Shown here: piece after piece, positions 1 through 14,780 of the stretch
How the letters are laid out: each line of letters starts with the position of its first letter
How positions within the stretch are numbered: position 1 is the stretch's first letter
Assembly: GCA_964550795.1 (NCBI GenBank)
Contig: CAZKBH010000020.1
Location: forward strand, 8,111-72,110
Direction of reading: 5' to 3'
Source of the DNA: an uncultured Saprospiraceae bacterium
GTDB lineage: Bacteria; Bacteroidota; Bacteroidia; Chitinophagales; Saprospiraceae
DNA: 64,000 bases
The notes under the pieces: model-generated
Database searches by the model: none
Seen by the model: the letters and a program-made list of their open reading frames with translations, nothing else
Told to the model about the DNA's origin: nothing
Position numbers and translations under genes: made by a program

Positions 1-1530
1 TTGGGTTGGGACAATGCCGAACAAATCCGCCAACTCGATGAAGAACTTCGCCAACTGCAAGGCGAGATCCAACGCTTGCAGGAACGTACACAAACCATTG
101 AAAATGAAATCAGCCAATTGAATGGAAAATTAGCCAATACGCAGCGTTTGGCCGATTTTCCAGACTTTAAAACCATTGATTTTGACAATATTCAACTCCA
201 AATTGAAGAGCTGACCAAGTATATTGAAAAATTGAGCCAGGCATCCTCGCAGATAAAAGTGCTGGAGCAACAGTTGCGACAGGTGGAAGGCAAGATCAAA
301 ACCGCCGAGTCGCGCAAAAGTGAATGGCTGCGTTCTGAAGGCCAGATGAATACCCAACTCGGCCAACTCCGTACCAAACTGGATTTCAAAAAAACAGATG
401 CCGCCGAATACGAGGCGCATCCAATCCAAACTCCGCATTTTGAGGCATTTCTGAACAGCGTACCCGATTTGGACCTTCCAACGATAGACAAAACGGAGCA
501 GATTCAAAAAAGTCAATTGGCCGAAAAAATCAGGGCCGCACAAAAAGTCGAATTCGACCTCCGCATGGAATCCGAGCGCCTGATGAAGGATTTTAAGCAG
601 CCCACCAAGGCACTGCTCGACCAATTTCCTTCCTGGCCCAACGATACCGACGAATTGGGCAACCCAACCATCGAAAACATCGGCGATTACCTCAGCCTGC
701 TCGAACGCATCCAATCCAACCAATTACCCGAACTCCGCGAGCGCTACCAGGCACGCGCCAGCAAAGACATCGGCAATGCCATGCAAGCCTTTCAGCGGCG
801 TCTGGAGGACCAACTCATCGACCACCGCGACAATATCCGCAACATCAACCAGTCACTGCGCGCCCTGTCGTACTCGCACGACACGTATTTGCAAGTGGTG
901 ACCGAGGAAAACCAACGCAGAAGCCGAATTGGTGAATTTTTTCAATTGCTCCAATCTTGGGACTACGACCGCGCTGCTTTTTTGGCCGCTTCAGGGCCTG
1001 AAAAATTGGAGATTTGGAAAGAAACCGTACGAAAAATTGGAGATATTATCCGGCGTTTGGAAGACAATGACCTATGGCGCAAGGAAGTTACCGATGTGCG
1101 CAATTGGCTCAATTTCAAAACCCAGCAGTATTACAGCACTAATAACGAGGTAGTGCGTGGTACTTTACTAGACAGCACAGGCGGCAAATCGGGTGGGGAA
1201 CAAGCCAAAATCACCTATACCATACTTGCGGCAGCCCTTACTTACCAGTTCAACATCAGTGCCGACGAGCGCAATGCCCGCTCCTTCCGCTTTATCGTGG
1301 TGGACGAAGCATTTAGCAAATTGGATCCTGAAAACAGCGCTTATTTGCTCGATTTATTGACCGCCCTCAAATTTCAAATGCTCATTATCACGCCAAATAC
1401 TGGCATCGCGACAGGCGAAAAATACATGAGCCATTTGATTTTTGTAAAAAAGGAATCGGAATCGCCGCCCCGATCCGTAGCCTACTGTTATTCGATCAAA
1501 GAGGTGAAAAAATTCATGGTAGCTCAATGA
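1..1530 (+). CDS. jetC: SMC/ABC-type ATPase, C-terminal part (JetC-like, Wadjet); 5' end lies outside the window
   Basis: Long coiled-coil-like region is followed by the ABC signature-like 'GGKSGGEQ' and Walker B/D-loop 'FRFIVVDEAFSKLD'. The stop overlaps (ATGA, 1527-1530) the start of a JetD-like gene. Confidence 0.6.
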   Translation: MGWDNAEQIRQLDEELRQLQGEIQRLQERTQTIENEISQLNGKLANTQRLADFPDFKTIDFDNIQLQIEELTKYIEKLSQASSQIKVLEQQLRQVEGKIKTAESRKSEWLRSEGQMNTQLGQLRTKLDFKKTDAAEYEAHPIQTPHFEAFLNSVPDLDLPTIDKTEQIQKSQLAEKIRAAQKVEFDLRMESERLMKDFKQPTKALLDQFPSWPNDTDELGNPTIENIGDYLSLLERIQSNQLPELRERYQARASKDIGNAMQAFQRRLEDQLIDHRDNIRNINQSLRALSYSHDTYLQVVTEENQRRSRIGEFFQLLQSWDYDRAAFLAASGPEKLEIWKETVRKIGDIIRRLEDNDLWRKEVTDVRNWLNFKTQQYYSTNNEVVRGTLLDSTGGKSGGEQAKITYTILAAALTYQFNISADERNARSFRFIVVDEAFSKLDPENSAYLLDLLTALKFQMLIITPNTGIATGEKYMSHLIFVKKESESPPRSVAYCYSIKEVKKFMVAQ

Positions 1531-2654
1531 TTACGACAGCAGATATTCGCAAAAGGGCAGAGGCTCATTATCGCCAATGGTTGACGGCTATTGCCCAAGG
1601 GAATCCTGCGTATGAACCGCTTACGATCAAGCGCACTGGCGACCAAAAAAAGGCAGAGGAACGTTGGGAGGCCTTGAGTGAACTCGTCAATCAAAGCAAG
1701 GAAAAAACGGGATTGGGCTATCGAATTGAGCTGGAAGCGCCCCCGCCCAACAGCAAAAACAAACAAAGCCGCCTTCGGGCTATTGTATTTGACACCGCAG
1801 GCGATTTGCTTCAGTTTATCGAAAAAACGCCCGAATTAGACAATTTTAAACGCAATTTCGCCCTGATTAACGGAACACCCGAACTTGCATCCTGGTGCGC
1901 TGCACATGTCCGCGAGGTTGTGCAATACGATGCGGTTTGGCCCCAATTGCTCGCCGTGGTACGTTTCTTTCAGGAAGATCCAGCACCTGCGCTGCCCATT
2001 CGTTTATTGCCCATCGAAGGGGTTGACACCAAGTTTATTGAGCAATACAATGGCGTTTTGTGTCAATTGTTAGATAATATCCTGCCTAAAGCGGCCATTT
2101 ATACCGCACATAAAAATTTTTCAAAGCGATACGGGTTGCCGGAACAAGCACCGCTCGTGGAGTGCGCCTGGAACGACCCGACCCTAGTAGCGCAGTACGG
2201 TGGATTCAATCGCCTTGCGTTTCCGGCAGACCAGTTGGGGCAAATTCCGCTTGCTGCTTCGCGTATTTTAGTGGTCGAAAACAAAAATAGTATGCTTCAG
2301 GCACTACAAGAGCCTTTTTCTGATGGCATGGTCATTTTCGGCGGCGGTTATGGAATATCGCTGCTCAAAGACTGCCAATGGCTGCATCAAAAAGTCCTTT
2401 ACTATTGGGGCGATCTGGACGCCCATGGATTGGCCATCTTGAGCCGCTTTCGCGACTTTTTTCCGAATATTCGAGCCCTGATGATGGATGAAACGACTTT
2501 TGAAGCCTACCCGCATGCGTGGGTGGAGGGCAAGCCTTACTATGGCGCAGTTCCAGAAAATTTGAGTGCCGAAGAACGGCAATTATTCGAGCGACTCAAC
2601 AGCAAATTGCTCCGATTGGAGCAAGAAAGAGTGCAATATCGGATGCGTCACTAG
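1527..2654 (+). CDS. jetD: JetD-like protein (DUF3322 + DUF2220/Toprim-like domain) of a Wadjet/MksBEFG-type system
   Basis: The C-terminal motifs 'VVENKNS' and 'YWGDLDAHGLAILSRFR' are typical of the Toprim-like DUF2220 domain. The gene is translationally coupled to the upstream SMC-like ATPase. Confidence 0.6.
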   Translation: MITTADIRKRAEAHYRQWLTAIAQGNPAYEPLTIKRTGDQKKAEERWEALSELVNQSKEKTGLGYRIELEAPPPNSKNKQSRLRAIVFDTAGDLLQFIEKTPELDNFKRNFALINGTPELASWCAAHVREVVQYDAVWPQLLAVVRFFQEDPAPALPIRLLPIEGVDTKFIEQYNGVLCQLLDNILPKAAIYTAHKNFSKRYGLPEQAPLVECAWNDPTLVAQYGGFNRLAFPADQLGQIPLAASRILVVENKNSMLQALQEPFSDGMVIFGGGYGISLLKDCQWLHQKVLYYWGDLDAHGLAILSRFRDFFPNIRALMMDETTFEAYPHAWVEGKPYYGAVPENLSAEERQLFERLNSKLLRLEQERVQYRMRH

Positions 2655-2715
2655 AATTTTCTCGCTTTTGATTCCAACTAAATTCCTGAACACGCTCTTA
2701 ATTACATATTTTGCA

Positions 2716-2742
2716 TCAAGCTAACCGAGATGGTTAGCTTGA
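2716..2742. promoter_or_regulatory. Perfect 11-bp stem / 5-nt loop hairpin between jetD and kaiC
   Basis: tcaagctaacc-gagat-ggttagcttga, with no following T-run. It could be a jetD transcript end or an operator upstream of kaiC. Confidence 0.3.
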
Positions 2743-2866
2743 CACAACTAGTAAATGTAGAACAAATATGTTTTCACCCAATAAGGGCTATTTAGAGGAA
2801 GGTGACGGCCCGGGTTAGACACCAAAAAGAAATCCGTTTGGTGAAACTTAACAGTATCTTTATGGA

Positions 2867-4318
2867 ATGAAACCAAGCATACAAACCAATTTAACCAAAA
2901 CCCCTACTGGCATTGCTGGATTAGACGAAGTGACAGGAGGTGGTTTTCCGAAAGGCAGACCAACATTGCTGTGTGGCAGCGCAGGTTGCGGTAAAACCTT
3001 GTTCGGCATTCAGTTTCTTACCAGTGGCATTACAGCCTACAACGAGCCGGGAGTGTTCATGAGTTTTGAAGAAACCAAAGGCGATTTGGTAGCGAATGTA
3101 AAATCACTTGGCATTGATTTAGAAGAAATGATTGCCAACAACAAACTCCGCATTGACCATGTGAGAGTGGAACGATCCGAAATTGAAGAAACAGGCGAGT
3201 ATGATTTGGAGGGATTATTCATCCGCCTCAACTATGCCATAGAGAGTATTGGTGCCAAGCGAGTGGTGCTCGATACCATTGAATCCCTTTTTAGCGGCAT
3301 TACCAACACCGCTGTGTTGCGCTCAGAAATTCGCAGATTATTTAGCTGGCTGAAAGAAAAAGGCATTACAGCAGTTATTACAGGGGAACGTGGCGATAAA
3401 ACTTTTACCCGCCAGGGTTTGGAGGAATATGTTTCAGATTGTGTAATCCTGCTTGATTTCCGCGTGATTGACCAGATAGCCACCCGGAGGTTACGCATTG
3501 TAAAATACCGCGGCAGTACACACGGCACCAATGAATATCCTTTTCTGATTGACGAAAAAGGGATTTCTGTTTTACCCATTACTTCGCTTAAACTGAATCA
3601 TCAGATTTCTGATGAAATCATCTCAACCGGTCTGCCTTCCCTGGACAAACTGTTTGTGAAAGGTGGCATTTACCGGGGTAGCAGTACGCTCCTAACCGGC
3701 TCGGCAGGCACAGCCAAAACAATTTTGGCTTCTTACTTTGCAGCGGAAAGTTGTAAGCGAAAGGAGAATACCATTTATTTTTCTTTTGAAGAATCGCCTG
3801 AACAATTAATACGCAATATGGCCTCGGTTGGCATTGACCTAAAGGCCTATATCAACTCAAAAAAGCTAATCATCCATTCTTCCCGCCCTTCTTTGTTAGG
3901 TTTGGAAATGCACCTGCTTGTATTACACCGGCTCATTGAAGAACATAAACCACAAACTATCATTGTTGACCCTATCAGCAGTTTAGTCACTGTTGGTAAT
4001 ACTGGCGAAGTACAGGAGATGCTCATTCGCCTGATGGATGTGCTTAAAAAAAATCTCATCAACGCATACTTTACCTCGCTTACCCATCAGAGCAGCGCCG
4101 CGCATGATATTACGATTGATTCCATTTCTTCTCTGGCAGACATTTGGATACAGGTAAACAACGAAGTGGAAAACGACAATCACGTGCGCGCTCTTCGCAT
4201 TGTAAAGGCCCGAGGTATGGGGCATCAAACAACCGTACAGCATTTTATCATCACCCATCAAGGCATCCAAATGCTCCATGTTGAAAATAAAAAACCTTCA
4301 AAGGACACCGCAGGATAA
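2867..4318 (+). CDS. kaiC: KaiC-family double-domain ATPase/autokinase
   Basis: N-terminus '[21 protein letters not shown]'. There are two RecA-like halves with Walker A 'GSAGCGKT' (CI) and 'GSAGTAKT' (CII). '[13 protein letters not shown]' aligns with the cyanobacterial phosphosite segment 'HISTITDTIILL'. Confidence 0.9.
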
Positions 4319-4362
4319 TAGTCATCAAAATAATAAGCATCACCGTACAACCTAAATTTTTT

Positions 4363-4665
4363 ATGGCACAGCAGGAAAAAATTGAATTGAGATTATACGT
4401 AGCAGGGCAAACATTGAAGTCGGTAACCGCCCTGGAAAATATTACCAGGTACTGCAATGAAAACTTAGATGGAAAATATTCCATTGAAGTAATTGACCTC
4501 TTAAAAAATCCGCAGCTTGCTGAAGGAGATCAAATATTTGCAATCCCGACCTTAGTGAGAAAAGTGCCCGAGCCTATCCGCAAAATAATTGGCGACCTTA
4601 GTAACGAAGAAAAGGTTTTAGTGGGATTGAACATCGTAAAGGTAAAAGTAGAAGAACAGTCATGA
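4363..4665 (+). CDS. kaiB: KaiB (thioredoxin-like clock protein)
   Basis: '[12 protein letters not shown]', '[46 protein letters not shown]' closely matches canonical KaiB. Confidence 0.9.
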
Positions 4666-4967
4666 AAATAAATAAAATACAACATATTCCCGAAGGGAAA
4701 CTACTCCTCCAACTCTATGTGGCAGGAATGTCGGCAAAATCAATGGAAGCCATTGAAAATATAAAACAACTGTGCGATGAATACCTGCAAGGCGCATTTG
4801 AACTGGAAATCATTGATTTGTACAAAAATCCGGAGGCAGCAAGCGAGCAACAAATACTTTTTAGTCCATCTTTAATCAAAACGTTTCCCTTGCCGAGAAA
4901 AATGCTCATCGGCACTTTTTCGGCCACTGAAAAAGTTGTCAAAGCATTAGGCATAACCATAAAATAA
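4662..4967 (+). CDS. Second, divergent KaiB-like protein
   Basis: '[19 protein letters not shown]', '[43 protein letters not shown]'. There is a 4-bp ATGA overlap with kaiB. Confidence 0.75.
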
Positions 4968-4968
4968 T

Positions 4969-7900
4969 ATGGAAACCCAAACACCTGCAATGCTTTTGTC
5001 TCAGATAGAAGCATTGCAAAATCGCCTCGCTGAATCGGAACAACTCATAGAGGCCATAAAGGCGGGTGAAGTGGATGCTTTTGCGATCACGACCAACAAC
5101 AAAGCCGAAGTATTCACCTTACAAAGTGGGGACTATGCGTATCGGGTGCTAATAGAAAATCTCAGTGAAGGTGCCCTGAATCTATCTGAAAATGGATTAA
5201 TTGTTTATACGAATATCGCTTTCTATGAAACCCTTAAACTCCCCTATGAAAAAGTTATCGGACAAAATATTATTCAATTTATACATCCTGACTCAGTAGA
5301 AACGTTCCAAAAACTTTTCAAAAAAGGATTAGCTGGACAAAGCAAAGGCGAAATAAATTTAATTGTCGAGAAAAAGTCCTGTCCGGTATATATTTCACTC
5401 ACCTCGCTTTCTCCTGCATTGCCCACCGTGGGCGTGATTGTAAGCAACCTTACCGAGAAAAAACAAGCCTTGAAAGAGCTTGAAGTGAAAAAGAGCTTAC
5501 AAAATATTTTTCAGAATGTTCCTGCGGCCACTGCTGTTTTTACAGGACCTAAACACAAACTTATTTTAGCAAACAAGGCTTACGAAAAATTATTCAATCG
5601 CAAAGCGAAAGATTTACTCGGCAAAAACATTCGTGAAGTTTTCCCTGAACTAATAGAGACAGGCGCTTTTGACCTGGTTGACTATGTTTTTAGAACGGGA
5701 GAATCATTTTATGCCCCTGAATATGCCTCAACCGTAAATCTCAACAATGGAGATGAGCGGCAGGGTTATTTTAATTTTTCTATGGAGCCATTGAAAAATG
5801 ATTCAGGAGAAATTTATGCAGTGATTGCGATGATTTATCCAATTACAGAGCAGGTGTATGGAAGAAAAAAGGTGGAAGAAAACGAGAAGCAGAAGGTGTT
5901 CCTGTTGAAGCTCAGCGATGTACTTCGTCCGCTCAGCGACCCGGTGGAGATTGAAGGAGCTGCTACCAAAATATCCTTGGATTTTATGGGCGCGGACAGG
6001 TGTTACTACAGTACCTTAGAAGAAGGGAATGCTATTGTGTTGCGTGATACTTTTCGGGAGGGTTTGACTTCCCTTTCCGGGGTTTATCCCATCAGCAATT
6101 TCCCCCTTTTTAAAGCCGTAATAGATGCAGGGCGTCCTTTTATAGTGGATGATGTGTACACCTCTGATATCATAGAAGAAGGGTTAAGACAGATTTGCGT
6201 GGAGGTGCAAGTAATTTCAATGATCAATGTACCAGTCATTAAAAACGGCAAATCGGTTGGCGTACTATCCCTTGTGCAAAGTAAGCCCAGGACATGGACA
6301 GGGGCAGAGGTGCAATTAACCATAGAAACAGCTGAGCGCACCTGGGCTGCAATAGAAAGAGCTAAAGTCGGAGAAGCCCTGCGCAAATCAGAAGAAAAGT
6401 ATCGCACTCTTTTCACGTCCATGGATCAGGGCTTTACCCTCTGCGAGCTGATTCGCGACAAAGAAGGTAAAGGAATTGACTTTTATATACTGGAGGTGAA
6501 TCCAACCTATGAAATACAGACAGGCGTAAGCAAAGAAATGGTAGTTGGAAAACCCCTCTTGGAGGTTTTTCCTTCACTCGACAAATTGATAGAAACCTAT
6601 GCTGCCGTGGTGGATAATCAGCACCCGGTCGAATTTGAGCAATACTTTGAAGACACGGACCGCTGGTTTGCAATCAAAGCTTATCCTGTTGAGAAGGAAC
6701 GGTTTGCCGTTTTGTTCAGCAATATCACCGAACGCAAACAAGCGGAAGAAATAATAAAAGAGAGCGAAAGTCGCTTTCGGGGTATGGCGGATGCCTCACC
6801 GGTGCTAATCTGGACCCTTGATGCGCTCGGGGGGGCGTCCTATTATAACAAAACGTTTCTTGATTTTATTGGGGCTTCCAAGGATGAGGATATCTCTGAC
6901 TGGGAAAAAATTGTTCATCCCGATGATTTCCAAGCTATGTTTGAGGCAATAAATAGGTCCATTGCAAAAAAAAGTGCTTACGCATCAGAACTCCGCCTGT
7001 TAAGAGCCGATGGGCAGTGGCGCTGGGTGATGGCGCAAGGTAGTCCACGCTTGGATACTAACAATGAGTTTCTGGGTTTTGTTGGTTCCTCTGTTGACAT
7101 TACCGAACGCAAACAGTTTGAATCTGAATTGATGGAAGCAAAGACAGCTGCAGAAAATGCCGCCAAGTCCCGGCAACAGTTTTTATCTAACATGAGCCAT
7201 GAAATCCGAACACCTTTGAATTCTATCTTAGGATTTACCAATGTGTTATTTAAAACTGAACTAGGCAAAGAACAAAAAGAATATGTACAAGCCATAAAAA
7301 CAAGTGGCAAGTCTTTAAACCTGCTCATCAACGACATACTTGATTTAGCAAAAGTGGATGCAGGTAAAATGACATTTGAAAAGCAGCCTTTTGAAATGCA
7401 AAAATCAGTATCTTCAATATTACATTCTTTCGATTTAAAATTAAAAGAAAAGAATTTAGTACTTGTAGAAGAATACGACAGCAAAATTCCATCTATGTTG
7501 TTGGGAGATTCGGTTAGATTAAATCAGATTCTTTTTAATCTTGTTGGAAACGCCATAAAATTTACCCACAAAGGAGAAATTATCTTAAAGGTGAAAGTAC
7601 TGTTCGAAGACGAAGAGGATGTGATCATTGAACTTACCGTTACCGATTCAGGAATTGGAATCCCCGCTGACAAATTAAACTCAATTTTTAATCTTTTTGA
7701 ACAGGCTGAACTTAGCACATCCACTTCTTATGGCGGAACAGGATTAGGGCTTGCTATTGTTAAAAAATTAGTGGAAGAACAAGGTGGGACTATCAGCGTA
7801 CAAAGTAAACCCGGGGAAGGTTCAACATTTAGTTTGGTCCTGCCGTTTGGAAAAACAGATATAACATCAGCACAAGAAATAGAGATGCCCACGCTGAAAG

Positions 7901-8280
7901 CAGAAAGTCAAAACCTGCGCGTATTGGTAGCCGAAGATGTTGCGCTAAATCAATTATTAATCAAAATTATTTTAAGCGATTTTGGGTTTGAATATGAATT
8001 AGTAGGCAATGGAAAACTAGCCATAGAAAAAATGAAAACCCATACCTTCGACATTATTTTGATGGATTTGCAAATGCCTGAAATGAATGGATATGAGGCA
8101 ACAGAATATATACGCAAAACATTGAAATCTCAAATTCCAATCGTTGCTTTAACGGCAGATGTAACTACAGCAGATGTTTCGAAATGCAAAGAATTTGGAA
8201 TGGACGATTATATTTCAAAGCCCATTTCCGAAAACTTATTGTACAGTAAAATAATGGAGTTGGTACAAAAGAAACGATAG
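4969..8280 (+). CDS. Hybrid sensor histidine kinase / response regulator with multiple PAS and GAF modules
   Basis: H-box 'SHEIRTPLNSILGF'; N/G boxes 'LVGNAIKFT', 'DSGIGI', 'GGTGLGLAIVKKLVE'; C-terminal receiver 'VLVAEDVALNQ...DIILMDLQMPEMNGYE...ALTAD...ISKP'. The gene starts 2 nt after the second kaiB. Confidence 0.9.
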   Translation: METQTPAMLLSQIEALQNRLAESEQLIEAIKAGEVDAFAITTNNKAEVFTLQSGDYAYRVLIENLSEGALNLSENGLIVYTNIAFYETLKLPYEKVIGQNIIQFIHPDSVETFQKLFKKGLAGQSKGEINLIVEKKSCPVYISLTSLSPALPTVGVIVSNLTEKKQALKELEVKKSLQNIFQNVPAATAVFTGPKHKLILANKAYEKLFNRKAKDLLGKNIREVFPELIETGAFDLVDYVFRTGESFYAPEYASTVNLNNGDERQGYFNFSMEPLKNDSGEIYAVIAMIYPITEQVYGRKKVEENEKQKVFLLKLSDVLRPLSDPVEIEGAATKISLDFMGADRCYYSTLEEGNAIVLRDTFREGLTSLSGVYPISNFPLFKAVIDAGRPFIVDDVYTSDIIEEGLRQICVEVQVISMINVPVIKNGKSVGVLSLVQSKPRTWTGAEVQLTIETAERTWAAIERAKVGEALRKSEEKYRTLFTSMDQGFTLCELIRDKEGKGIDFYILEVNPTYEIQTGVSKEMVVGKPLLEVFPSLDKLIETYAAVVDNQHPVEFEQYFEDTDRWFAIKAYPVEKERFAVLFSNITERKQAEEIIKESESRFRGMADASPVLIWTLDALGGASYYNKTFLDFIGASKDEDISDWEKIVHPDDFQAMFEAINRSIAKKSAYASELRLLRADGQWRWVMAQGSPRLDTNNEFLGFVGSSVDITERKQFESELMEAKTAAENAAKSRQQFLSNMSHEIRTPLNSILGFTNVLFKTELGKEQKEYVQAIKTSGKSLNLLINDILDLAKVDAGKMTFEKQPFEMQKSVSSILHSFDLKLKEKNLVLVEEYDSKIPSMLLGDSVRLNQILFNLVGNAIKFTHKGEIILKVKVLFEDEEDVIIELTVTDSGIGIPADKLNSIFNLFEQAELSTSTSYGGTGLGLAIVKKLVEEQGGTISVQSKPGEGSTFSLVLPFGKTDITSAQEIEMPTLKAESQNLRVLVAEDVALNQLLIKIILSDFGFEYELVGNGKLAIEKMKTHTFDIILMDLQMPEMNGYEATEYIRKTLKSQIPIVALTADVTTADVSKCKEFGMDDYISKPISENLLYSKIMELVQKKR

Positions 8281-8337
8281 CGCAGGCGGTTCGGCGCTCT
8301 CGGAGAAACATATCCTCGATATTCATTTATTTACCCA

Positions 8338-8446
8338 TCGCTATCTCATAACTCTTCTGGCTGGTATAACGCCTGCCAACACATCCGTGGCCTCCACTTC
8401 TATGAGATGTTTCCCTGCTGGAAGTTTGCTGGGGACTTTCGCATGA
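8338..8446 (-). pseudogene. Decayed, frameshifted copy of a gene 3' end (paralogous to 11257-11375)
   Basis: About 80% nucleotide identity by eye over about 110 nt to the 3' end of the 11257-11496 ORF, with a 1-nt deletion relative to it. No intact ORF is present. Confidence 0.5.
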
Positions 8447-8823
8447 AACCGAAGCCTCCTACCCGGAAACAACGCTTTTTTGGGTGCAATTCAGACTGTT
8501 CACATTCATTTCAAAGGCAAGTTCAAAATCGACTTCGCGCCTAAATCCAAGTTGGACGTGTTCGTGCGCGGCGACTGGATGACGGATTTCAAGGAGAGGT
8601 TTGGGAAGTATATAACGCCACTCATCCCTTTTTTCCTGGCACTCAGCACCAAACTTTTGTACGCAGTTATACAGCCCGTGCACTTTTGTTTTGTAAAAAA
8701 ACTGACATCAACAAAAGTTATGAGAACGAGATTTTTCTTCGCCCTGCGCGAGCACTACTAGCTGCTCGCAGGACACAAAAGATGGATTACTACATTTTTT
8801 CACACAATAACATTTTTAAGACT

Positions 8824-9516
8824 ATGAAAAACATTCTTTTGATGGCCCTCTGCGGCCTCAGCATCCTTTTGGCCACCTCCTGTGAAAAGGAAGCGGTAAC
8901 AGAAACCTTTTCGTTCAATTTTTCAGAACAGCAGCACGGCTGGGCGGTCGGGTTCGCCGATTACAGCGACGCCTACGAGCAATTGGAATTGGAAGGGAAA
9001 CTTGCTCCGCTGCCCCAACCGCTCAATCCATCGGGCAAAACGATGGGCTTGAAAGTGCAGGGAGACAACCGTCCGGACGACCTTTTCATGTTTGTCAAGC
9101 GCAAGGTGACGGGCTTGCAGCCCCTTCAAAATTATACACTGCGCATGGACATCCGGTTGGCCAGCGACGCACCCAAAGGTCAGATTGGTATCGGCGGCGC
9201 ACCAGGCGAGGCGGTCTTTCTCAAAGCAGGCGCGGTCACCGAAGAGCCTACAGTCAGAAAAAACGCTGCAGGCTACTACACCATCAACATAGACAAAGGC
9301 AACCAAGCACAGGGCGGCAAAGACATGAAAGTGGTTGGCGACGTCGCCAAACCCGATGACAAACCCGGTTACGCCAGTTTGATCCGCCAAATTGATAACC
9401 TCTCTGTAAAAACCAATGCCCAAGGTGAGTGCTGGCTCATTGTCGGCACCGATTCCGGCTACGAAGGCATGACCCGTCTGTATTACCAGACCATTATAGC
9501 GACCTTAAAAGAGTAG
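8824..9516 (+). CDS. Hypothetical lipoprotein
   Basis: An internal ATG gives 'MKNILLMALCGLSILLATSC', a lipobox-type signal. The longer upstream extension of the ORF is unlikely to be translated. Confidence 0.6.
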   Translation: MKNILLMALCGLSILLATSCEKEAVTETFSFNFSEQQHGWAVGFADYSDAYEQLELEGKLAPLPQPLNPSGKTMGLKVQGDNRPDDLFMFVKRKVTGLQPLQNYTLRMDIRLASDAPKGQIGIGGAPGEAVFLKAGAVTEEPTVRKNAAGYYTINIDKGNQAQGGKDMKVVGDVAKPDDKPGYASLIRQIDNLSVKTNAQGECWLIVGTDSGYEGMTRLYYQTIIATLKE

Positions 9517-9688
9517 CCATAACCCGCTCGTGTTTTCATGTGACCGCCGGGCGTTCAGCTCGGCGGTTTTCCCCTGTACGCCCCGGGATTACCCAACTTA
9601 TACGAGGTCAACCCCACCAAAGTAGATTTGGCTGCATTTCGCTCCAATTGAATGTTTTTTTGTACTTTTGTTACAAATTGTTTCGCAA

Positions 9689-10570
9689 ATGGCAAAGAAA
9701 TTAGTTCGGTTCGACTGGGCCATGAAGCGGCTGCTTCGCAATAAAGCCAATTTTGACATCTTGGAAGGCTTCCTTTCCGAGTTGCTCCACGAAGATTTCA
9801 AAATCAAGCAAATCCTTGAAAGTGAAGGGAATAAGGAGACCGAGGACGACAAGTTCAACCGGGTAGATATTCTTGTGCAGAATAAAACAGGCGAGTTAGT
9901 CATCGTTGAAATTCAAAATACCCGTGAAGCTGACTACTTTCAGCGGATGCTTTACGGAACCGCCAAGGTCATCGTCGAACATATCTCTGAGGGGCAGCCG
10001 TATTCCCAAGTCAAAAAAGTGTACTCTGTGAACATCGTTTATTTTGACCTCGGTCAAGGGGATGACTATGTGTATCACGGTACAACTACGTTTTTTGGCA
10101 TCCACAGCAACCATGAACTCGAACTGTCCGAAAAGCAAAAAGAACTTTTCAAAAAAACCTCCGTATCGAACTTGTACCCAGAGTATTATGTGATAAAAAC
10201 AAATCGGTTCAACGATGTCGCTATGGATACATTAGACGAGTGGATATATTTCCTGAAAAAGGCGGAAATTAAAGACGAATTCACCGCAAAAGGGCTGAAA
10301 TCAGCGAGCCAGAAACTTGATATCCTGAAATTAGATCCTGCTGAGCGCAAGGAATATGATAGATACATGGAAGCGCAACGGAGTGACGCCAGTTTTGTGG
10401 AGACAGTAAAACTAGAAATAGCGTCGGCGATAAAAAGCAGAGAGGAAGAAATTGCTGAGAGTGCCCTCATAGAAGGTGCATCCGCCGATTTTATTGTCAA
10501 AATCACCGGGCTGCCTATTGAGCAAGTCCGAGATATAGCTGAAAGGCTCAAATTGATAAAATTGAAGTGA
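9689..10570 (+). CDS. Rpn/YhgA-like PD-(D/E)XK nuclease family protein (recombination-promoting nuclease / putative transposase)
   Basis: 'FDWAMKRLLRNKAN', 'RVDILVQNKTGELVIVEIQN', 'YSVNIVYFDLG' fit the characteristic D...E.Q core and family layout. Confidence 0.7.
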   Translation: MAKKLVRFDWAMKRLLRNKANFDILEGFLSELLHEDFKIKQILESEGNKETEDDKFNRVDILVQNKTGELVIVEIQNTREADYFQRMLYGTAKVIVEHISEGQPYSQVKKVYSVNIVYFDLGQGDDYVYHGTTTFFGIHSNHELELSEKQKELFKKTSVSNLYPEYYVIKTNRFNDVAMDTLDEWIYFLKKAEIKDEFTAKGLKSASQKLDILKLDPAERKEYDRYMEAQRSDASFVETVKLEIASAIKSREEEIAESALIEGASADFIVKITGLPIEQVRDIAERLKLIKLK

Positions 10571-10572
10571 GA

Positions 10573-11031
10573 ATGAAGTGGTTAGCTTTGTTCTCATTTT
10601 GCATATTTTCGTTTGCACTGCCTTGTCAAAAGCAGGCATTGCCTCAACAAAGTCAAAATAGTTATACTTTGTGTGAGGACTACTTTAAGTTTATCAAAGA
10701 TAATTTTCGCCCTAATTCGCTTGGAATCTATGGCCATAACGATTTGTTTCCGCTCAAAAAAGAGGAACAAACAGCTAAATATCGAAACGAGATAATAAAT
10801 CAATGTCTGATCGGAAAAACAAAAGAAGAAATAATATCTATTTTTGGAAAGCCTTCTTTTTCATCGTTAAATCGACTTGATTATTACTTCAACGGCAACT
10901 GTTCAAAAAAAGGAGCTAACCCAAAGAGCCCAAGTATCCTTAGATGTGTTCGATTGAAAATTTATTTGAGCAATGAAGGAATAGTTACAGGAGTTCCTGC
11001 AATAATCAACGAGTCTGGACAAAAGCAATAA
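10573..11031 (+). CDS. Hypothetical secreted protein
   Basis: N-terminal signal-like 'MKWLALFSFCIFSFALPCQ'. No motif was recognised. Confidence 0.5.
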   Translation: MKWLALFSFCIFSFALPCQKQALPQQSQNSYTLCEDYFKFIKDNFRPNSLGIYGHNDLFPLKKEEQTAKYRNEIINQCLIGKTKEEIISIFGKPSFSSLNRLDYYFNGNCSKKGANPKSPSILRCVRLKIYLSNEGIVTGVPAIINESGQKQ

Positions 11032-11256
11032 ATAGTCTTATTTACACGGGGCTTGACCACGTACCAACTAAGGAATATCCAAATAGACTTGATTACTACA
11101 TGACAGCTAAATGCCAGGGAAAAGCCCGTGGGGATACGCCTAACATACCGGGATGTATTCGACTCCAAGTTTACTTTGATGAAAACAAAAAAGTAGTTGG
11201 CGTTGGGGGCATGACAAGAGAGTAGATATTTGGTGCTAACAATGCGTGGTCGATGC

Positions 11257-11496
11257 CTACTTCCCCACCACAATCTCATAACTCGTCTGGCTAGTATAAA
11301 TCCTGCCAAACATATCCGTGGCCTCCACTTCTATGGTATATTTCCCTGCTGGAAGCTTGTTAGGTATATTCGCTCTCCATAAGTGCTTGCATTTCTGCGG
11401 ATTAGAAGGGCGTTTCCCCTCCAAGAGTTCCGTCGTGGTATCCCACTCAAACATTTCCAGCAGATAGATAGGGTCATAATCCTCCATAAAGCGCAT
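11257..11496 (-). pseudogene. Orphan 3' fragment (79 codons) of a larger gene encoding an Ig-like C-terminal domain
   Basis: 'LPAGKYTIEVEATDMFGRIYTSQTSYEIVV' looks like the terminal beta-sandwich of a larger enzyme, with no room upstream for the rest of that gene. It is paralogous to the remnant at 8338-8446. Confidence 0.45.
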
Positions 11497-11726
11497 GTCC
11501 TGCCATTCTCCACCATCTATGCGGCAGCGCAGGGTGGATTTTTCATTGCTTATAAGTATGGATGCTGATTTGAATCGGCAAAGTAGGGCTGATCCCGGTC
11601 AGGCGGGTTAAGGCATACTTTAAATTTAAGAGAAGCTTTGGGGGGCGAGGGTTTTTATACAACTTCCGGCTGAAATGCCGTATTTTGTGTCTTGCTTCGT
11701 ACCGTGAATTATATAAACAATCATTT

Positions 11727-14700
11727 ATGAATTCAAACCTAGTTTCCAGTCGTATTTACCTATTTTTTCTGTTGACCCTGATTTGTGGTGGAAGCAATAT
11801 TTGGGGACAAGTTATTTCCGCCGAAGAATCCTTTTACAAGGAAGCCCTGAATTTGCGTGGGAAGGGAGATTTCCAATCGGCGTATGAAATGACCATTAGG
11901 TCTGACAGCTTGCTTCAATCCAATCCCCACGCGCCCAATCTCTTGAGGGCACAGGTAAAACACTTACAGGGCCTTATGTTGTACAACCTGAATTTGTTCC
12001 CTCAAGCCATTGGGGCACTCCAATCGGCGGACTCCATTTACGCTGTTTTGCAAGACTTCGGAGGAAGGGCGGATTGTTACCTTTTTATAGGGAATAGCAT
12101 TTGGTATCTGGAAGGGGCAGAAGCGGCTTTGAAGCAATTTGACCTGGCCATTCAATTCGCTCAACGGGACGATTTTAATACCCGGCAATACCGGGGTAAA
12201 TACTATCTTGACAAGGCCTATGCTTATGGAGAGTTGGGCAAGTTTAAAGAAAGTTTTTTGTGGTTGAATAAGGGCTTGGAAATGGATCGGGCGCACTTTG
12301 GCGAAACATCCAAGCAATATGCGGAGGCTCTCATGGTACAATCTGTGATGTTCAATTACCAAGGCGATTATTACAAATCGGCACAGGGCCTGGAATCCGC
12401 GTTGCAAATTCAACAAAATCTGAATTCGGGTGAGAATATACAGCATTTAGCACCTATTTATGGCAATCTGGCCGTTACTTATTTCTATTTAGGTGATCTG
12501 GATGAGGCAGAACGCTATAGTTTGAAAACTTTAGCTGCTTACCGTAGCATTTTGGAAGGCGAGCACAATCAATTTGGCATGATTTATCTACACTTAGGCG
12601 ATATCAATGTGAATCGGAACCAACCGGAGGAAGCCATGGAATGGTACCGAAAAGCAGATCTGGTTGCTGATACCAATGATATCAATCTCCAAATTGGGCT
12701 TCGATATGGATGGGGGTTGAGTTTGCATAATTTGGGTAGGTACGCTGAAGCGGACAGTATCTACAAAGTGTTACGGAAGTCATCGGAGGAGTTTTATGGA
12801 GCCGAGCATTCCAATGTGGCTGTTTACTATGAAAACTTTGCAAACAATTTGCTTGCGCTCGATAGTGTAGAAGCCAGTCTTCGCGCGTTGGATAAAGTTG
12901 CAGCAATTAACCGAGCGTTGTTCCCGCCCGGTCACATAACTGAGGCTCGGATATTGGCATTGAAAGCAAATGTATATTGGACGGCACGTTTTTATGAAAA
13001 AGCCATCGAAACCAGTGAAGCAGGTCTGCAAATATTTGAAGGGAAGCCCGATGCGCTGTTGATGGAACACCACAATATATACTACACTTTGCACCATTCT
13101 CGGGCCAGATCGTTTTTGCAAAAAAGCGGCCAGGATCCCTTGAAAGCCGTTCAAGCGTCGCTGGTGAGTTATCGAGCATTGGAAGCTATCTCGGATCGTA
13201 TCCTACGGGAAGAACGGAGTATGGATGCACGGCAACGCACCCTGTCCAACCGGGGAAATTTATATGAGGAAATGCTCCAAGCGCTGCATCAATTGTCCCG
13301 ATGGACCGTTCCCCAGAATGAAGAAATGTGGCGAATTGTAGAAAAAAGCAAGGCTATGATCCTTTTGGACGGCATCCGAAAGGTCCAAATGCCCATGGTG
13401 GAGTTGGTGCTGGATTCTATTCAAAGAACAACCGCCGCCTATAATTTTTATCAGAAAAAAATATTTGATGCGATGCAGCAACCCGGGACTGCGGATGAAG
13501 ATGCGGTGATACAGTGGCAATCGGCGGCTTTTGACTTAGAAACGCGTCGGCGCTTAATTTGGAAGGTCTTTAGGGAAGAGAACCCTGTGCTTAGCGATAA
13601 TTTTGAACCCGGGAAAAATATACGCTCGCTTCAATATGTACAAGACACCTTACTTCAATCCGATCAAGCCTTGCTCGAATATTTCGTCGGCGACAGCAGT
13701 ATTTTCCTCTTTGTTGTAAAGCCCGATACTTTCCTCGTTGAGGAGATACCATATAATTTCCCGCTTGAAGACTGCATTGAAGGACTTCGAAAAGGTCTAT
13801 ATGGCTATTACGCTGCTGGTAAAGAGGAGCGTTCCGATCCAGACCTCCAGAAAAATTCACGCAAGTTATACCTGGAAAACGCCCAATTCCTTTATGAAAA
13901 ACTCTTCGCCCCTGTGGCACAATTCCTCCCGGAAAAAGTCATCATTGTCCCGGATGGCCCTTTGGGGTACATTCCCTTTGATGCCTTGTTGGATCGAATG
14001 CCGGAGAACGAAATTGATTTTAAATCATATCCATATTTGCTAAAAAAATACCAGTTTAGCTACGTTTATTCGGCTACACTGCTGCGCGAGATGCGAGAAA
14101 AAAAACATCGCCAGGAGCCTAGGAATTCTTTATTGGGCTTTGCGCCATTCCTCTCCAGCGACACGACTAACCTTAAAAAAGAACGCCAAACAGTGTTGCA
14201 AAAAGGGTTTGATCCCTTGCCTTATAGTAAAATCGAACTTGAGCTGGCGCGCCAAAAAATGGGAGGCGACATCGTGACGGGCAGTAATGCCCTGTTATCT
14301 AGATTTTTGGCTGTTGCTGGCCAATACCGCATCCTTCACCTTGCCACCCACGGCGTAGCGGACAACCGCGTGGGCGACTACGCTTATCTGGTTTTTAACA
14401 AACACCCGGATAGCGCAGGGTACTCCTTATTATATGTCAAAGATCTCTACAACCTCTCCCTCAACGCGGATCTTGTGGTGCTTTCTGCTTGCGAAACCGG
14501 GATAGGTAAACTTCAGCGTGGAGAAGGGATCATTTCTCTGGCAAGGGCGTTTGCTTATGCGGGCGCCAAAAGCATACTCACCTCACTTTGGAGCGTGAGC
14601 AACAAAAGCACTTCGGAATTGATGGCTTTGTTTTACGAAGAGTTGAGTGCAGGCCGAGACAAAGATGCCGCCCTTAGAAAGGCAAGGCAACGCTATATCG

Positions 14701-14780
14701 AAAATGCTACGGTGCGCAATGCGCACCCGTTTTTTTGGGCAGCTTTTGTACCTGTTGGGGACATGCGGAGGGTGAAATAA
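11727..14780 (+). CDS. TPR-repeat CHAT-domain (caspase-like) protein, paralogue 1, with N-terminal signal/anchor
   Basis: N-terminus 'MNSNLVSSRIYLFFLLTLICGGSNIWGQ'; TPR-like repeats; CHAT dyad context 'ILHLATHGVADN' and 'LVVLSACETGIGK'; 'HPFFWAAFVPVGD' at the C-terminus. Confidence 0.85.
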   Translation: MNSNLVSSRIYLFFLLTLICGGSNIWGQVISAEESFYKEALNLRGKGDFQSAYEMTIRSDSLLQSNPHAPNLLRAQVKHLQGLMLYNLNLFPQAIGALQSADSIYAVLQDFGGRADCYLFIGNSIWYLEGAEAALKQFDLAIQFAQRDDFNTRQYRGKYYLDKAYAYGELGKFKESFLWLNKGLEMDRAHFGETSKQYAEALMVQSVMFNYQGDYYKSAQGLESALQIQQNLNSGENIQHLAPIYGNLAVTYFYLGDLDEAERYSLKTLAAYRSILEGEHNQFGMIYLHLGDINVNRNQPEEAMEWYRKADLVADTNDINLQIGLRYGWGLSLHNLGRYAEADSIYKVLRKSSEEFYGAEHSNVAVYYENFANNLLALDSVEASLRALDKVAAINRALFPPGHITEARILALKANVYWTARFYEKAIETSEAGLQIFEGKPDALLMEHHNIYYTLHHSRARSFLQKSGQDPLKAVQASLVSYRALEAISDRILREERSMDARQRTLSNRGNLYEEMLQALHQLSRWTVPQNEEMWRIVEKSKAMILLDGIRKVQMPMVELVLDSIQRTTAAYNFYQKKIFDAMQQPGTADEDAVIQWQSAAFDLETRRRLIWKVFREENPVLSDNFEPGKNIRSLQYVQDTLLQSDQALLEYFVGDSSIFLFVVKPDTFLVEEIPYNFPLEDCIEGLRKGLYGYYAAGKEERSDPDLQKNSRKLYLENAQFLYEKLFAPVAQFLPEKVIIVPDGPLGYIPFDALLDRMPENEIDFKSYPYLLKKYQFSYVYSATLLREMREKKHRQEPRNSLLGFAPFLSSDTTNLKKERQTVLQKGFDPLPYSKIELELARQKMGGDIVTGSNALLSRFLAVAGQYRILHLATHGVADNRVGDYAYLVFNKHPDSAGYSLLYVKDLYNLSLNADLVVLSACETGIGKLQRGEGIISLARAFAYAGAKSILTSLWSVSNKSTSELMALFYEELSAGRDKDAALRKARQRYIENATVRNAHPFFWAAFVPVGDMRRVK

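Follow-up and report, generated by a model that had tools for sequence, protein, structure and literature searches.

A KaiA-free Kai operon with a tail-less KaiC and two KaiB proteins in an uncultured Saprospiraceae bacterium

We analyzed a 64,000-nucleotide stretch of contig CAZKBH010000020.1 (assembly GCA_964550795.1), here called the window, from an uncultured Saprospiraceae bacterium of the phylum Bacteroidota. It carries a four-gene operon, kaiC-kaiB1-kaiB2-hybrid histidine kinase, which is a real and intact KaiA-free clock-protein operon of a type known from purple bacteria. This class of operon has been described before; new here are a clade of tail-less KaiCs to which the window protein belongs, the drift of a residue network coupled to the lost coil, a non-Gly P-loop in the CII domain, and a distinct KaiB2 that is not predicted to adopt the ground-state fold. 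We think it likely that this horizontally acquired operon encodes a KaiA-independent phospho-switch of the KaiC2 type, acting as an hourglass or energy-state timer rather than as a free-running clock, with a two-component kinase as its readout. The present analysis establishes which genes are present, that their motifs are intact, to which families they belong, the loss of the tail, and how the genes are conserved and distributed.

A check of open reading frames (ORFs) in the window found all four genes intact on the plus strand (Table 1). The spacer between kaiC and kaiB1 is 44 nt, kaiB1 and kaiB2 share a 4-nt ATGA overlap at 4662-4665, and 1 nt separates kaiB2 from the kinase gene. The host genome (4.95 Mb in 124 contigs) encodes one double-domain KaiC and exactly two KaiBs, and a search for KaiA (PF07688) gave no match at E ≤ 1 in this genome, which is scored as 100% complete. 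The closest relatives of each of the four genes belong to Bacteroidota. An earlier note on this DNA had described a kaiC-kaiB-kaiB-hybrid kinase module without kaiA, with the ATGA overlap and a kinase start 2 nt past the last base of kaiB2, and every one of these points was reproduced. Its reading of a Ser-Ser pair at the position aligned with cyanobacterial S431/T432, and of a KaiA-less KaiBC system of noncyanobacterial type with a linked two-component kinase, likewise agrees with the alignments and relatives given below.

Loss of the KaiC tail and of the coil-coupled network

The window KaiC matches the Pfam KaiC/ATPase family (PF06745) in two stretches (380 bits) and scores 660.8 bits with the NCBIfam model NF006799, 'circadian clock protein KaiC', whose cut-off is 408. 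With the cyanobacterial equivalog TIGR02655 it reaches 328 bits, under the cut-off of 546. Its best relatives in the Protein Data Bank (PDB) are the Rhodobacter sphaeroides structures 8DB3, 8DBA, and 8FWI (∼540 bits, E ∼1e-161, residues 9-470), and Synechococcus elongatus KaiC scores ∼303 bits in the same search. From these similarities we assign the protein to the R. sphaeroides type (KaiC2, "group IV") with Ser-Ser phosphosites. The CI domain has a Walker A motif GSAGCGKT at residues 37-44, the catalytic Glu pair E68/E69, and D136; in CII, the Walker A motif occupies residues 278-285 and is accompanied by the Glu pair E308/E309 and D368. The predicted autophosphorylation sites, S421 and S422, align both with the Ser/Thr pair of cyanobacterial-type KaiC (S431/T432-equivalent) and with the R. 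sphaeroides Ser-Ser pair, which the phosphomimetic structure 8FWI carries mutated to Glu-Glu.

We gathered 80 related loci from species-representative genomes, and the Ser-Ser pair is kept in 81 of 81 relatives. A tail of 82-125 residues extends past the CII core in all but 12 of the gathered proteins (13 when the window KaiC is included). Most of the KaiC2 subgroup has a C-terminal coiled coil, which is formed by an extension of ∼50 residues or more. Only 13 residues follow the end of the CII core in the window protein, and its alignment to the 568-residue R. sphaeroides KaiC ends near residue 464 of the latter. Because kaiB1 begins 44 nt after kaiC, there is no tail hidden in another frame. 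In a tree built from core columns alone and rooted on Acidobacteriota/Binatia sequences, the window KaiC falls in an 11-member clade of short KaiCs (Shimodaira-Hasegawa-like approximate likelihood ratio test, SH-aLRT, 99) that includes metagenome-assembled genomes (MAGs) of Chitinophagaceae, Agriterribacter, and Ferruginibacter, unclassified Bacteroidota, and Flavobacterium wongokense. The short clade sits within a 35-member clade (SH-aLRT 100) whose other members are tailed and mostly from Flavobacterium; the sister group of this larger clade, made up of Mucilaginibacter/Chitinophagaceae/Spirosoma sequences, is tailed as well. The nesting of short proteins among tailed ones indicates that the tail was lost once, secondarily, inside a tailed KaiC2-type radiation. 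At least 119 further short-KaiC clusters, 69-93% identical and all 470-498 residues long, were found in a large metagenomic protein collection, so the short KaiCs form a big natural clade and are not an assembly accident. No description of a tail-less KaiC2 clade was found in the literature searched.

One locus of the sample, L046, labeled as a Janthinobacterium lividum MAG, has a KaiC that ends early, at 516 residues, and lies inside the Bacteroidota Chitinophagaceae-type clade, two kaiBs, and a 190-nt gap before the first of them. This contig probably comes from Bacteroidota and was mis-binned, and its KaiC tail would be frameshifted or truncated.

In R. sphaeroides KaiC, the tail builds the dodecamer, and an engineered protein that lacks the coil is a hexamer with nucleotide exchange and autophosphorylation near wild type; removal of the tail nearly abolishes ADP-driven dephosphorylation (Pitsawong et al. 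2023, PMC10076222). The same work traces a network from coil to phosphosite through S413, S414, W419, V421, Y436, L438, V449, and R450. The equivalents of S413, S414, and W419 are invariant in tailed and short KaiCs alike. At the R450 equivalent, Arg is present in 70 of 70 tailed KaiCs but in none of the 11 short ones (Gln in seven) and in 8 of the 119 metagenomic short-KaiC clusters. The Y436 equivalent is Tyr or Phe in 69 of 70 tailed KaiCs, compared with Leu, Arg, Val, Cys, or Tyr in the short clade, and the V449 equivalent, which is Val, Ile, or Leu in all tailed KaiCs, is scrambled there. The window protein itself has Gln for R450, Arg for Y436, Gln for V421, and Val at V449, and the otherwise invariant HSNQVREF motif reads HQTTVQHF. 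This drift is the pattern expected if coil-coupled allostery became irrelevant once the tail was gone. By alignment, then, the window KaiC has neither the tail nor the coupled network, both of which define the dodecameric hourglass of R. sphaeroides.

The short clade shares a further peculiarity with its tailed neighbors. The residue that precedes the Walker A Lys of CII is not Gly in any member of the 35-member clade, including the tailed Flavobacterium KaiCs, which places the change before the loss of the tail. Gly is likewise found in 0 of the 119 metagenomic short-clade clusters, in which the position is Ala (86), Ser (26), Thr (5), or another residue (2). The remaining KaiC2-type proteins sampled have a CII Walker A of GTAGTGKT.

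The paired KaiB proteins and the Kai-linked kinase

KaiB1 and KaiB2 both score over the 27-bit threshold of the Pfam KaiB family (PF07689; Table 1) and both fall under the cyanobacterial equivalog cut-offs of NF006798 and TIGR02654. The best PDB match of KaiB1 is the R. sphaeroides KaiB 8FWJ_M. The gene order kaiC-kaiB-kaiB-kinase occurs in 59 of the 63 loci labeled as Bacteroidota, and the remaining four are cut by contig ends; loci of other phyla mostly have one kaiB, in the order kaiC-kaiB-kinase in most. The tandem kaiB is the rule in Bacteroidota and is not a local duplication or an oddity, and no description of it was found in the literature searched. In a KaiB tree, the first-position proteins group together, as do the second-position proteins of the main Bacteroidota clades (SH-aLRT 95). 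The KaiB2s of the short clade are monophyletic on a long stem (SH-aLRT 98), and the window kaiB2 has its orthologues in the second kaiB genes of other members of the phylum. The topology mirrors that of the KaiC tree, which points to one old duplication followed by co-divergence.

The two proteins differ in how they are constrained. KaiB1 orthologues are near-invariant. Short-clade KaiB2s have FSPSLIK for AIPTLVR, LIG(T/N)F for IIGDLS, and KALG for VGLN, with a clade-specific string FSPSLIK..PLPKK.LIG(T/N)F and KALG, and 28 columns are invariant across nine sequences. K57, G88, and D90 are fold-switch positions of S. elongatus KaiB (cited in PMC5520375); KaiB2 has K57Q, G88A, and D90G, and KaiB1 retains the Gly. 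We modeled both proteins with AlphaFold2 from matched nine-sequence clade alignments. The KaiB1 model (predicted local distance difference test, pLDDT, 76.6) has the ground-state fold, with a template modeling (TM) score of 0.92 to Thermosynechococcus elongatus KaiB 1VGL over its full length, and against fold-switched structures its N-terminal half alone aligns. The KaiB2 model has a beta-alpha C-terminus, a strand followed by a helix, in place of the ground-state alpha-beta, at low confidence (pLDDT 66.4, and 52-64 in the C-terminal half). A profile of KaiB2 picks up 1T4Y and 6X61, both SasA N-domains (E ∼1e-4, ∼25 bits), which a KaiB1 profile does not reach at E ≤ 10. The KaiB2 profile also scores the Legionella KaiB 4KUN (71 bits) much as it does cyanobacterial KaiBs (72-76 bits), whereas the corresponding values for the KaiB1 profile are 63 and 104-108 bits. 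KaiB2 is a distinct, constrained paralogue, and on these models and profiles it is probably biased to the thioredoxin-like fold, which we offer as a lead and not as a result.

The same observations could be read to mean that KaiB2 is one half of a split SasA. It would then be a fold-locked, thioredoxin-like protein that attaches to the CI ring of KaiC and brings in the PAS kinase by way of the N-terminal module of the latter, the pair doing the job of cyanobacterial SasA. The selective SasA matches, the G88A-type change at a known fold-switch position, and the modeled C-terminal helix where the ground state has a strand would all fit, as would the position of kaiB2, which is 1 nt from the kinase gene here and tight against it or overlapping it in nearly all loci. 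However, the SasA matches are weak, the KaiB2 model is unreliable, and the loci of Acidobacteriota, Gemmatimonadota, and most Pseudomonadota have the same kinase N-terminal module with only one KaiB. We therefore consider a split SasA doubtful.

Pfam and NCBIfam agree on the domain order of the kinase, PAS-PAS-GAF-PAS-PAS-HisKA-HATPase-REC, as the earlier note had given it. The note had also called the sensory region unrelated, and this did not survive comparison with the kinases that follow kaiB elsewhere: residues ∼8-175 are conserved together with the HisKA/HATPase core. Residues 8-175 align with the N-termini of kinases in more than 70 kai loci across phyla, and this N-terminal module (N-module) is a signature present in the kai loci of Bacteroidota, Acidobacteriota, Gemmatimonadota, Planctomycetota, and Pseudomonadota. 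A profile of the N-module, made from a 25-sequence alignment, had 23 full-length matches in a set of 401 Bacteroidota genomes, with scores of 146-228 bits; the next best reached at most 68 bits and covered the generic PAS core only. All 23 genomes were positive for KaiC in a parallel search. Leaving the window's own match aside, 21 of the remaining 22 are encoded on the kaiC strand, 0.4-0.9 kb downstream of that gene. This confinement to KaiC-positive genomes, mostly just 3′ of kaiC, indicates that the module is Kai-specific, and it is likely a domain that couples the kinase to Kai proteins. A PDB sequence search with the N-module returned generic PAS matches only (PERIOD, ARNT, and PYP, E ≥ 6e-4) and no solved relative, and no description of it was found in the literature searched. 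In three Bacteroidales loci (L058, L066, and L087), the gene after the two kaiBs encodes the N-terminal PAS module alone, as a protein of 235-240 residues that lacks the kinase core, which indicates that the module can act as a separate protein.

The minimal Kai-linked kinase has ∼420 residues, and by domain comparison the window protein adds to it a PAS-GAF-PAS-PAS block and a fused receiver only. Relatives often, though not always, have a single-domain receiver gene adjacent to the kinase gene. We considered whether the fused receiver arose by fusion with such a neighbor and rejected this, as it is 21% identical to the receiver encoded at one of these loci (L012). The earlier note had further cast the kinase in the role of SasA or CikA, and neither assignment fits. 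The protein is not a SasA because it has no KaiB-like thioredoxin domain at its N-terminus, which consists of a helix and a PAS domain, and despite its GAF domain and kinase core it is not a CikA because its receiver keeps D1033 (K1084 is also present).

Genomic setting, selection, and history of the operon

For nearest relatives in the genome collection, dS was saturated, and we used instead an unsaturated comparison with L090, a metagenomic contig whose KaiC is 93% identical and which has the synteny jetABCD-kaiC-kaiB-kaiB-1103-residue kinase. The dN/dS ratios are 0.13 for kaiC, 0.03 for kaiB1, 0.13 for kaiB2, and 0.155 for the kinase, values that indicate purifying selection on each of the four genes. 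Within the host genus, the operon is accessory. Its GC content of 41.2%, against 48.8% for the genome, lies at the 1.2th percentile of windows of the same size, and its tetranucleotide distance is in the top 1.75%. KaiC was found in none of 18 genus-mates and none of 12 other genomes of the order, in one of eight family-mates, and, above the curated cut-off, in 45 of the 401 sampled Bacteroidota genomes. The low GC, the patchy occurrence of KaiC, and a short clade that mixes Chitinophagales-type MAGs with Flavobacterium argue for horizontal spread within the phylum.

The window and L090 are 98-100% identical over 600-2800, and the identity falls abruptly at ∼2800, ∼60 nt before kaiC, to 83-93%. 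This zone spans kaiC, kaiB1, kaiB2, and the 5′ half of the kinase gene, and identity recovers after ∼6600. In the same comparison, dS is 0.02 for jetD and 0.27-0.54 for kaiC and kaiB1. So sharp a step points to a recombination breakpoint at the 5′ edge of the operon.

Table 1. Coordinates of the kai operon and its features in the window
Feature	Position	Strand	Description
Intergenic region	2655-2866	+	Presumed promoter region of kaiC; near-identical to L090 up to about 2800
kaiC	2867-4318	+	483 residues; double-domain KaiC, KaiC2/R. sphaeroides type by similarity; natural loss of C-terminal coiled-coil tail
CII Walker A	3698-3721	+	GSAGTAKT; Ala283 in place of consensus Gly before Lys284
Ser421-Ser422	4127-4132	+	Predicted autophosphorylation sites, by alignment to R. 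sphaeroides and cyanobacterial-type KaiC
kaiB1	4363-4665	+	100 residues; canonical, extremely conserved KaiB; Pfam KaiB 96.8 bits
kaiB2	4662-4967	+	101 residues; divergent KaiB paralogue; Pfam KaiB 74.8 bits
Hybrid PAS/GAF histidine kinase	4969-8280	+	1103 residues
Kai-operon-specific N-module	4969-5493	+	Kinase residues 1-175; helix, GEVDA segment, first PAS
Added sensory block	5494-7131	+	Kinase residues 176-721; PAS-GAF-PAS-PAS (Pfam, NCBIfam); not in minimal Kai-linked kinases
HisKA (H744) and HATPase_c core	7168-7848	+	Pfam 77.8 and 103 bits; H-box, N, G1, and G2 motifs present
Fused receiver (REC)	7921-8253	+	Kinase residues 985-1095; Response_reg 89.8 bits; phospho-acceptor D1033 and K1084 present

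The region upstream of the operon (1-2654) contains the 3′ part of jetC (SbcC_Walker_B) and a complete jetD (DUF3322 and JetD_C) of a Wadjet anti-plasmid system. The end of jetD lies 212 nt before kaiC, and in L090 a full jetA-jetB-jetC-jetD set stands directly upstream of the kai operon. The intergenic region has a perfect 9-bp inverted repeat with a 5-nt loop (AAGCTAACC-GAGAT-GGTTAGCTT) at 2718-2740, with no T-run after it; it may be an operator or may mark where the Wadjet transcript ends. An Rfam scan of positions 1-12000 gave no matches.

Downstream, a direct repeat of ∼115 nt (8328-8442 and 11258-11373, 83-85% identical) starts 48 nt past the stop codon of the kinase gene. Between its two copies lies a 2.8-kb patch that holds a lipoprotein gene, a gene for an Rpn-like PD-(D/E)XK protein (PDDEXK_2), and a small ORF. 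At the matching stretch, L090 has a 346-residue ORF, extra genes, and a metallophosphatase gene before the CHAT gene. Two further genes are unrelated to the Kai module: one for a TPR-CHAT protein of 1031 residues (11685-14780) and one for a large S8 peptidase that contains tandem Cys-rich modules, near-identical to one another, as well as a sorting-type domain at its C-terminus (15028-19266).

This setting raises the alternative that the operon is carried on a variable island as a passenger that is decaying or has no function, or that it belongs to anti-phage defense together with the adjacent Wadjet genes. Low GC, the lack of a match in the 18 genus-mates, and flanks made up of jetC/jetD and the repeat-bracketed nuclease patch are what one would expect of such an element. 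A decaying passenger, however, would hardly keep four reading frames intact at dN/dS ratios of 0.03-0.16, the four-gene kai unit occurs in many unrelated contexts, and the short KaiCs recur intact in at least 119 metagenomic clusters. A PADLOC search with the four proteins gave trivial P-loop and HATPase similarity only, and the defense reading was rejected on this point. We accordingly give the passenger or defense alternative hardly any credence.

A proposed phospho-switch and its relation to known Kai systems

The phospho-switch that we favor would work as follows, each biochemical step being drawn by analogy and from conservation. KaiC is predicted, by analogy, to be a single hexamer, unlike the tail-linked dodecamer of R. 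sphaeroides. Without the restraint of an A-loop or a tail, it would autophosphorylate Ser421/Ser422 whenever ATP is plentiful. A putatively fold-switching KaiB1 would bind the CI ring of phosphorylated KaiC and, as the ATP/ADP ratio falls, would favor the return to the unphosphorylated state. The kinase would dock through its Kai-specific helix-PAS module on KaiC or on the KaiB-KaiC complex, so that its autophosphorylation and the passage of phosphate to its own receiver (D1033) would report the state of KaiC; the extra PAS and GAF domains may serve as other inputs. KaiB2 would be a second regulator specific to Bacteroidota, probably locked in or biased to the thioredoxin-like fold, that modulates KaiB1 binding or kinase docking. 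Since the coil and the allosteric network are gone, dephosphorylation and reset must differ from the R. sphaeroides model.

Several points weigh against this proposal. If the coil is required for dephosphorylation as it is in R. sphaeroides, KaiC might stay phosphorylated and time nothing, and Ala283 in the CII P-loop may alter or weaken nucleotide binding by CII. The kinase has no output domain and no histidine phosphotransfer (Hpt) domain, none is linked at the locus, and the three Hpt matches in the host genome are all on other contigs. Among the sampled Bacteroidota genomes with KaiC, about half have no strong full-length match to the N-module, which indicates that KaiC has other partners. 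Loci with one KaiB and the same N-module indicate that KaiB2 is not needed for kinase coupling in general, and a fold search with the low-confidence KaiB2 model gave TM scores of ∼0.4 to everything and did not separate the folds. At the level of transcription, a sigma-70 promoter scan found a number of sites near the shuffled expectation, although Bacteroidota promoters are not of the sigma-70 consensus type, and a terminator scan, uninformative in itself, found none on the plus strand after the kinase gene.

Some of the same features would suit a stress-response or metabolic-state ATPase system that keeps no time, in which KaiC phosphorylation is a static switch feeding the kinase, as has been proposed for Legionella KaiBC and for KaiC-like proteins of Pseudomonas. 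The missing coil, which in R. sphaeroides drives fast dephosphorylation, the noncanonical CII P-loop, the accessory distribution of the operon and its location among defense and accessory genes, and a large multisensor kinase suggestive of the integration of environmental signals all lean this way. Against it stand the conserved phosphosites, both catalytic Glu pairs, and a near-invariant KaiB1 of the fold-switch type under strong purifying selection, which are the needs of a cycling phospho-timer. A static switch and an hourglass differ in kinetics, a difference that sequence does not decide. We regard the static switch as possible, if on the unlikely side.

At the other extreme, KaiC, KaiB1, and KaiB2 could together form a self-sustained post-translational circadian oscillator with KaiB2 in the place of KaiA. 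A third conserved and constrained Kai-family protein is indeed encoded in every complete Bacteroidota locus, and the loss of the coil would demand another way of resetting KaiC. However, the closest studied system is an hourglass (PMC10076222), and KaiC of Flavobacterium johnsoniae UW101, from the sister tailed clade, was arrhythmic in vitro, with 0% of group IV KaiCs oscillating (Mukaiyama et al. 2025, PMC12081879). The operon is also accessory and patchy (45 of 401 genomes and 0 of 18 genus-mates), and its host is not a phototroph. An oscillator is thus very unlikely in our judgment.

A bolder form of the hourglass or energy-state timer can be imagined, in which KaiB2 took over the regulatory job of the lost tail and a three-protein KaiC-KaiB1-KaiB2 timer evolved independently of KaiA. 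A fold-locked KaiB2 would then trigger the dephosphorylation and reset of KaiC, or nucleate KaiB1 binding as the SasA N-domain does, with the non-Gly CII P-loop acting as an accelerator of nucleotide exchange. We put this forward as an improbable extension.

The only mechanistic model of KaiA-free Kai timers, that of R. sphaeroides, centers on the coil, which builds the dodecamer and whose register shift leads to dephosphorylation. Here, a large natural clade that is common in environmental Bacteroidota has kept the catalytic and phosphosite residues, discarded the coil, let the network drift, and always retained a second, distinct KaiB. It offers a natural experiment on how KaiBC resets without a coil, on the role of a widespread second KaiB, and on how the kinase N-module reads the state of the Kai proteins. 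If KaiC simply stays phosphorylated, the Kai modules of heterotrophs would be more like energy-state switches than clocks.

The S. elongatus KaiABC/SasA/CikA system resembles that of the window in having a double-domain KaiC with the same catalytic motifs, a KaiB with the ground state predicted here for KaiB1, and a histidine kinase output. The window system differs in that it has no KaiA and no A-loop or KaiA-binding tail, and its kinase is neither SasA nor CikA. Legionella pneumophila also has a KaiA-less KaiBC in a nonphototroph, and its KaiB Lpp1115 (4KUN) crystallized in the thioredoxin-like fold. Identity of its proteins to those of the window is much lower. L. pneumophila is not known to have a Kai-type PAS kinase linked to these genes or a tandem kaiB.

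Within Bacteroidota, only KaiB2/KaiC2-like proteins are reported to be encoded (Schmelling 2017, PMC5520375). The F. johnsoniae KaiC belongs to the same larger clade as the window protein, shares the non-Gly CII P-loop, and comes from a kaiC-kaiB-kaiB-kinase locus type. KaiCs of the Flavobacterium type differ in keeping a tail of ∼85-95 residues and the invariant HSNQVREF, and the corresponding KaiB2 has Ile, not Ala, at the G88 position. The earlier note's view that Kai function in this phylum is essentially unexplored is correct insofar as the literature searched reports no function, with one exception, the in vitro test of F. johnsoniae KaiC (PMC12081879).

The nearest likenesses are found in purple bacteria, in which a kaiC-kaiB-PAS/histidine kinase operon is known from Rhodopseudomonas palustris and R. 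sphaeroides (Ma et al. 2016, PMC4794148). R. palustris shares the gene order, with the PAS histidine kinase last, but is a phototroph with one KaiB, whereas the window has two KaiBs in a heterotrophic member of Bacteroidota. The kinase N-module is common to the window and to Kai-linked kinases of Pseudomonadota MAGs. The R. sphaeroides KaiBC hourglass (8DBA, 8DB3, 8FWI, and 8FWJ) is the best match for the window KaiC and for both KaiBs, and it shares the Ser-Ser phosphosites, the absence of KaiA, and kaiC followed by kaiB and a PAS kinase. The window KaiC differs from it in having no coiled coil, being even shorter than the engineered delta-coil protein cut at E490, in its unconserved network residues, and in the Ala that replaces Gly in its CII P-loop, and the operon adds a second KaiB and a hybrid kinase of 1103 residues.

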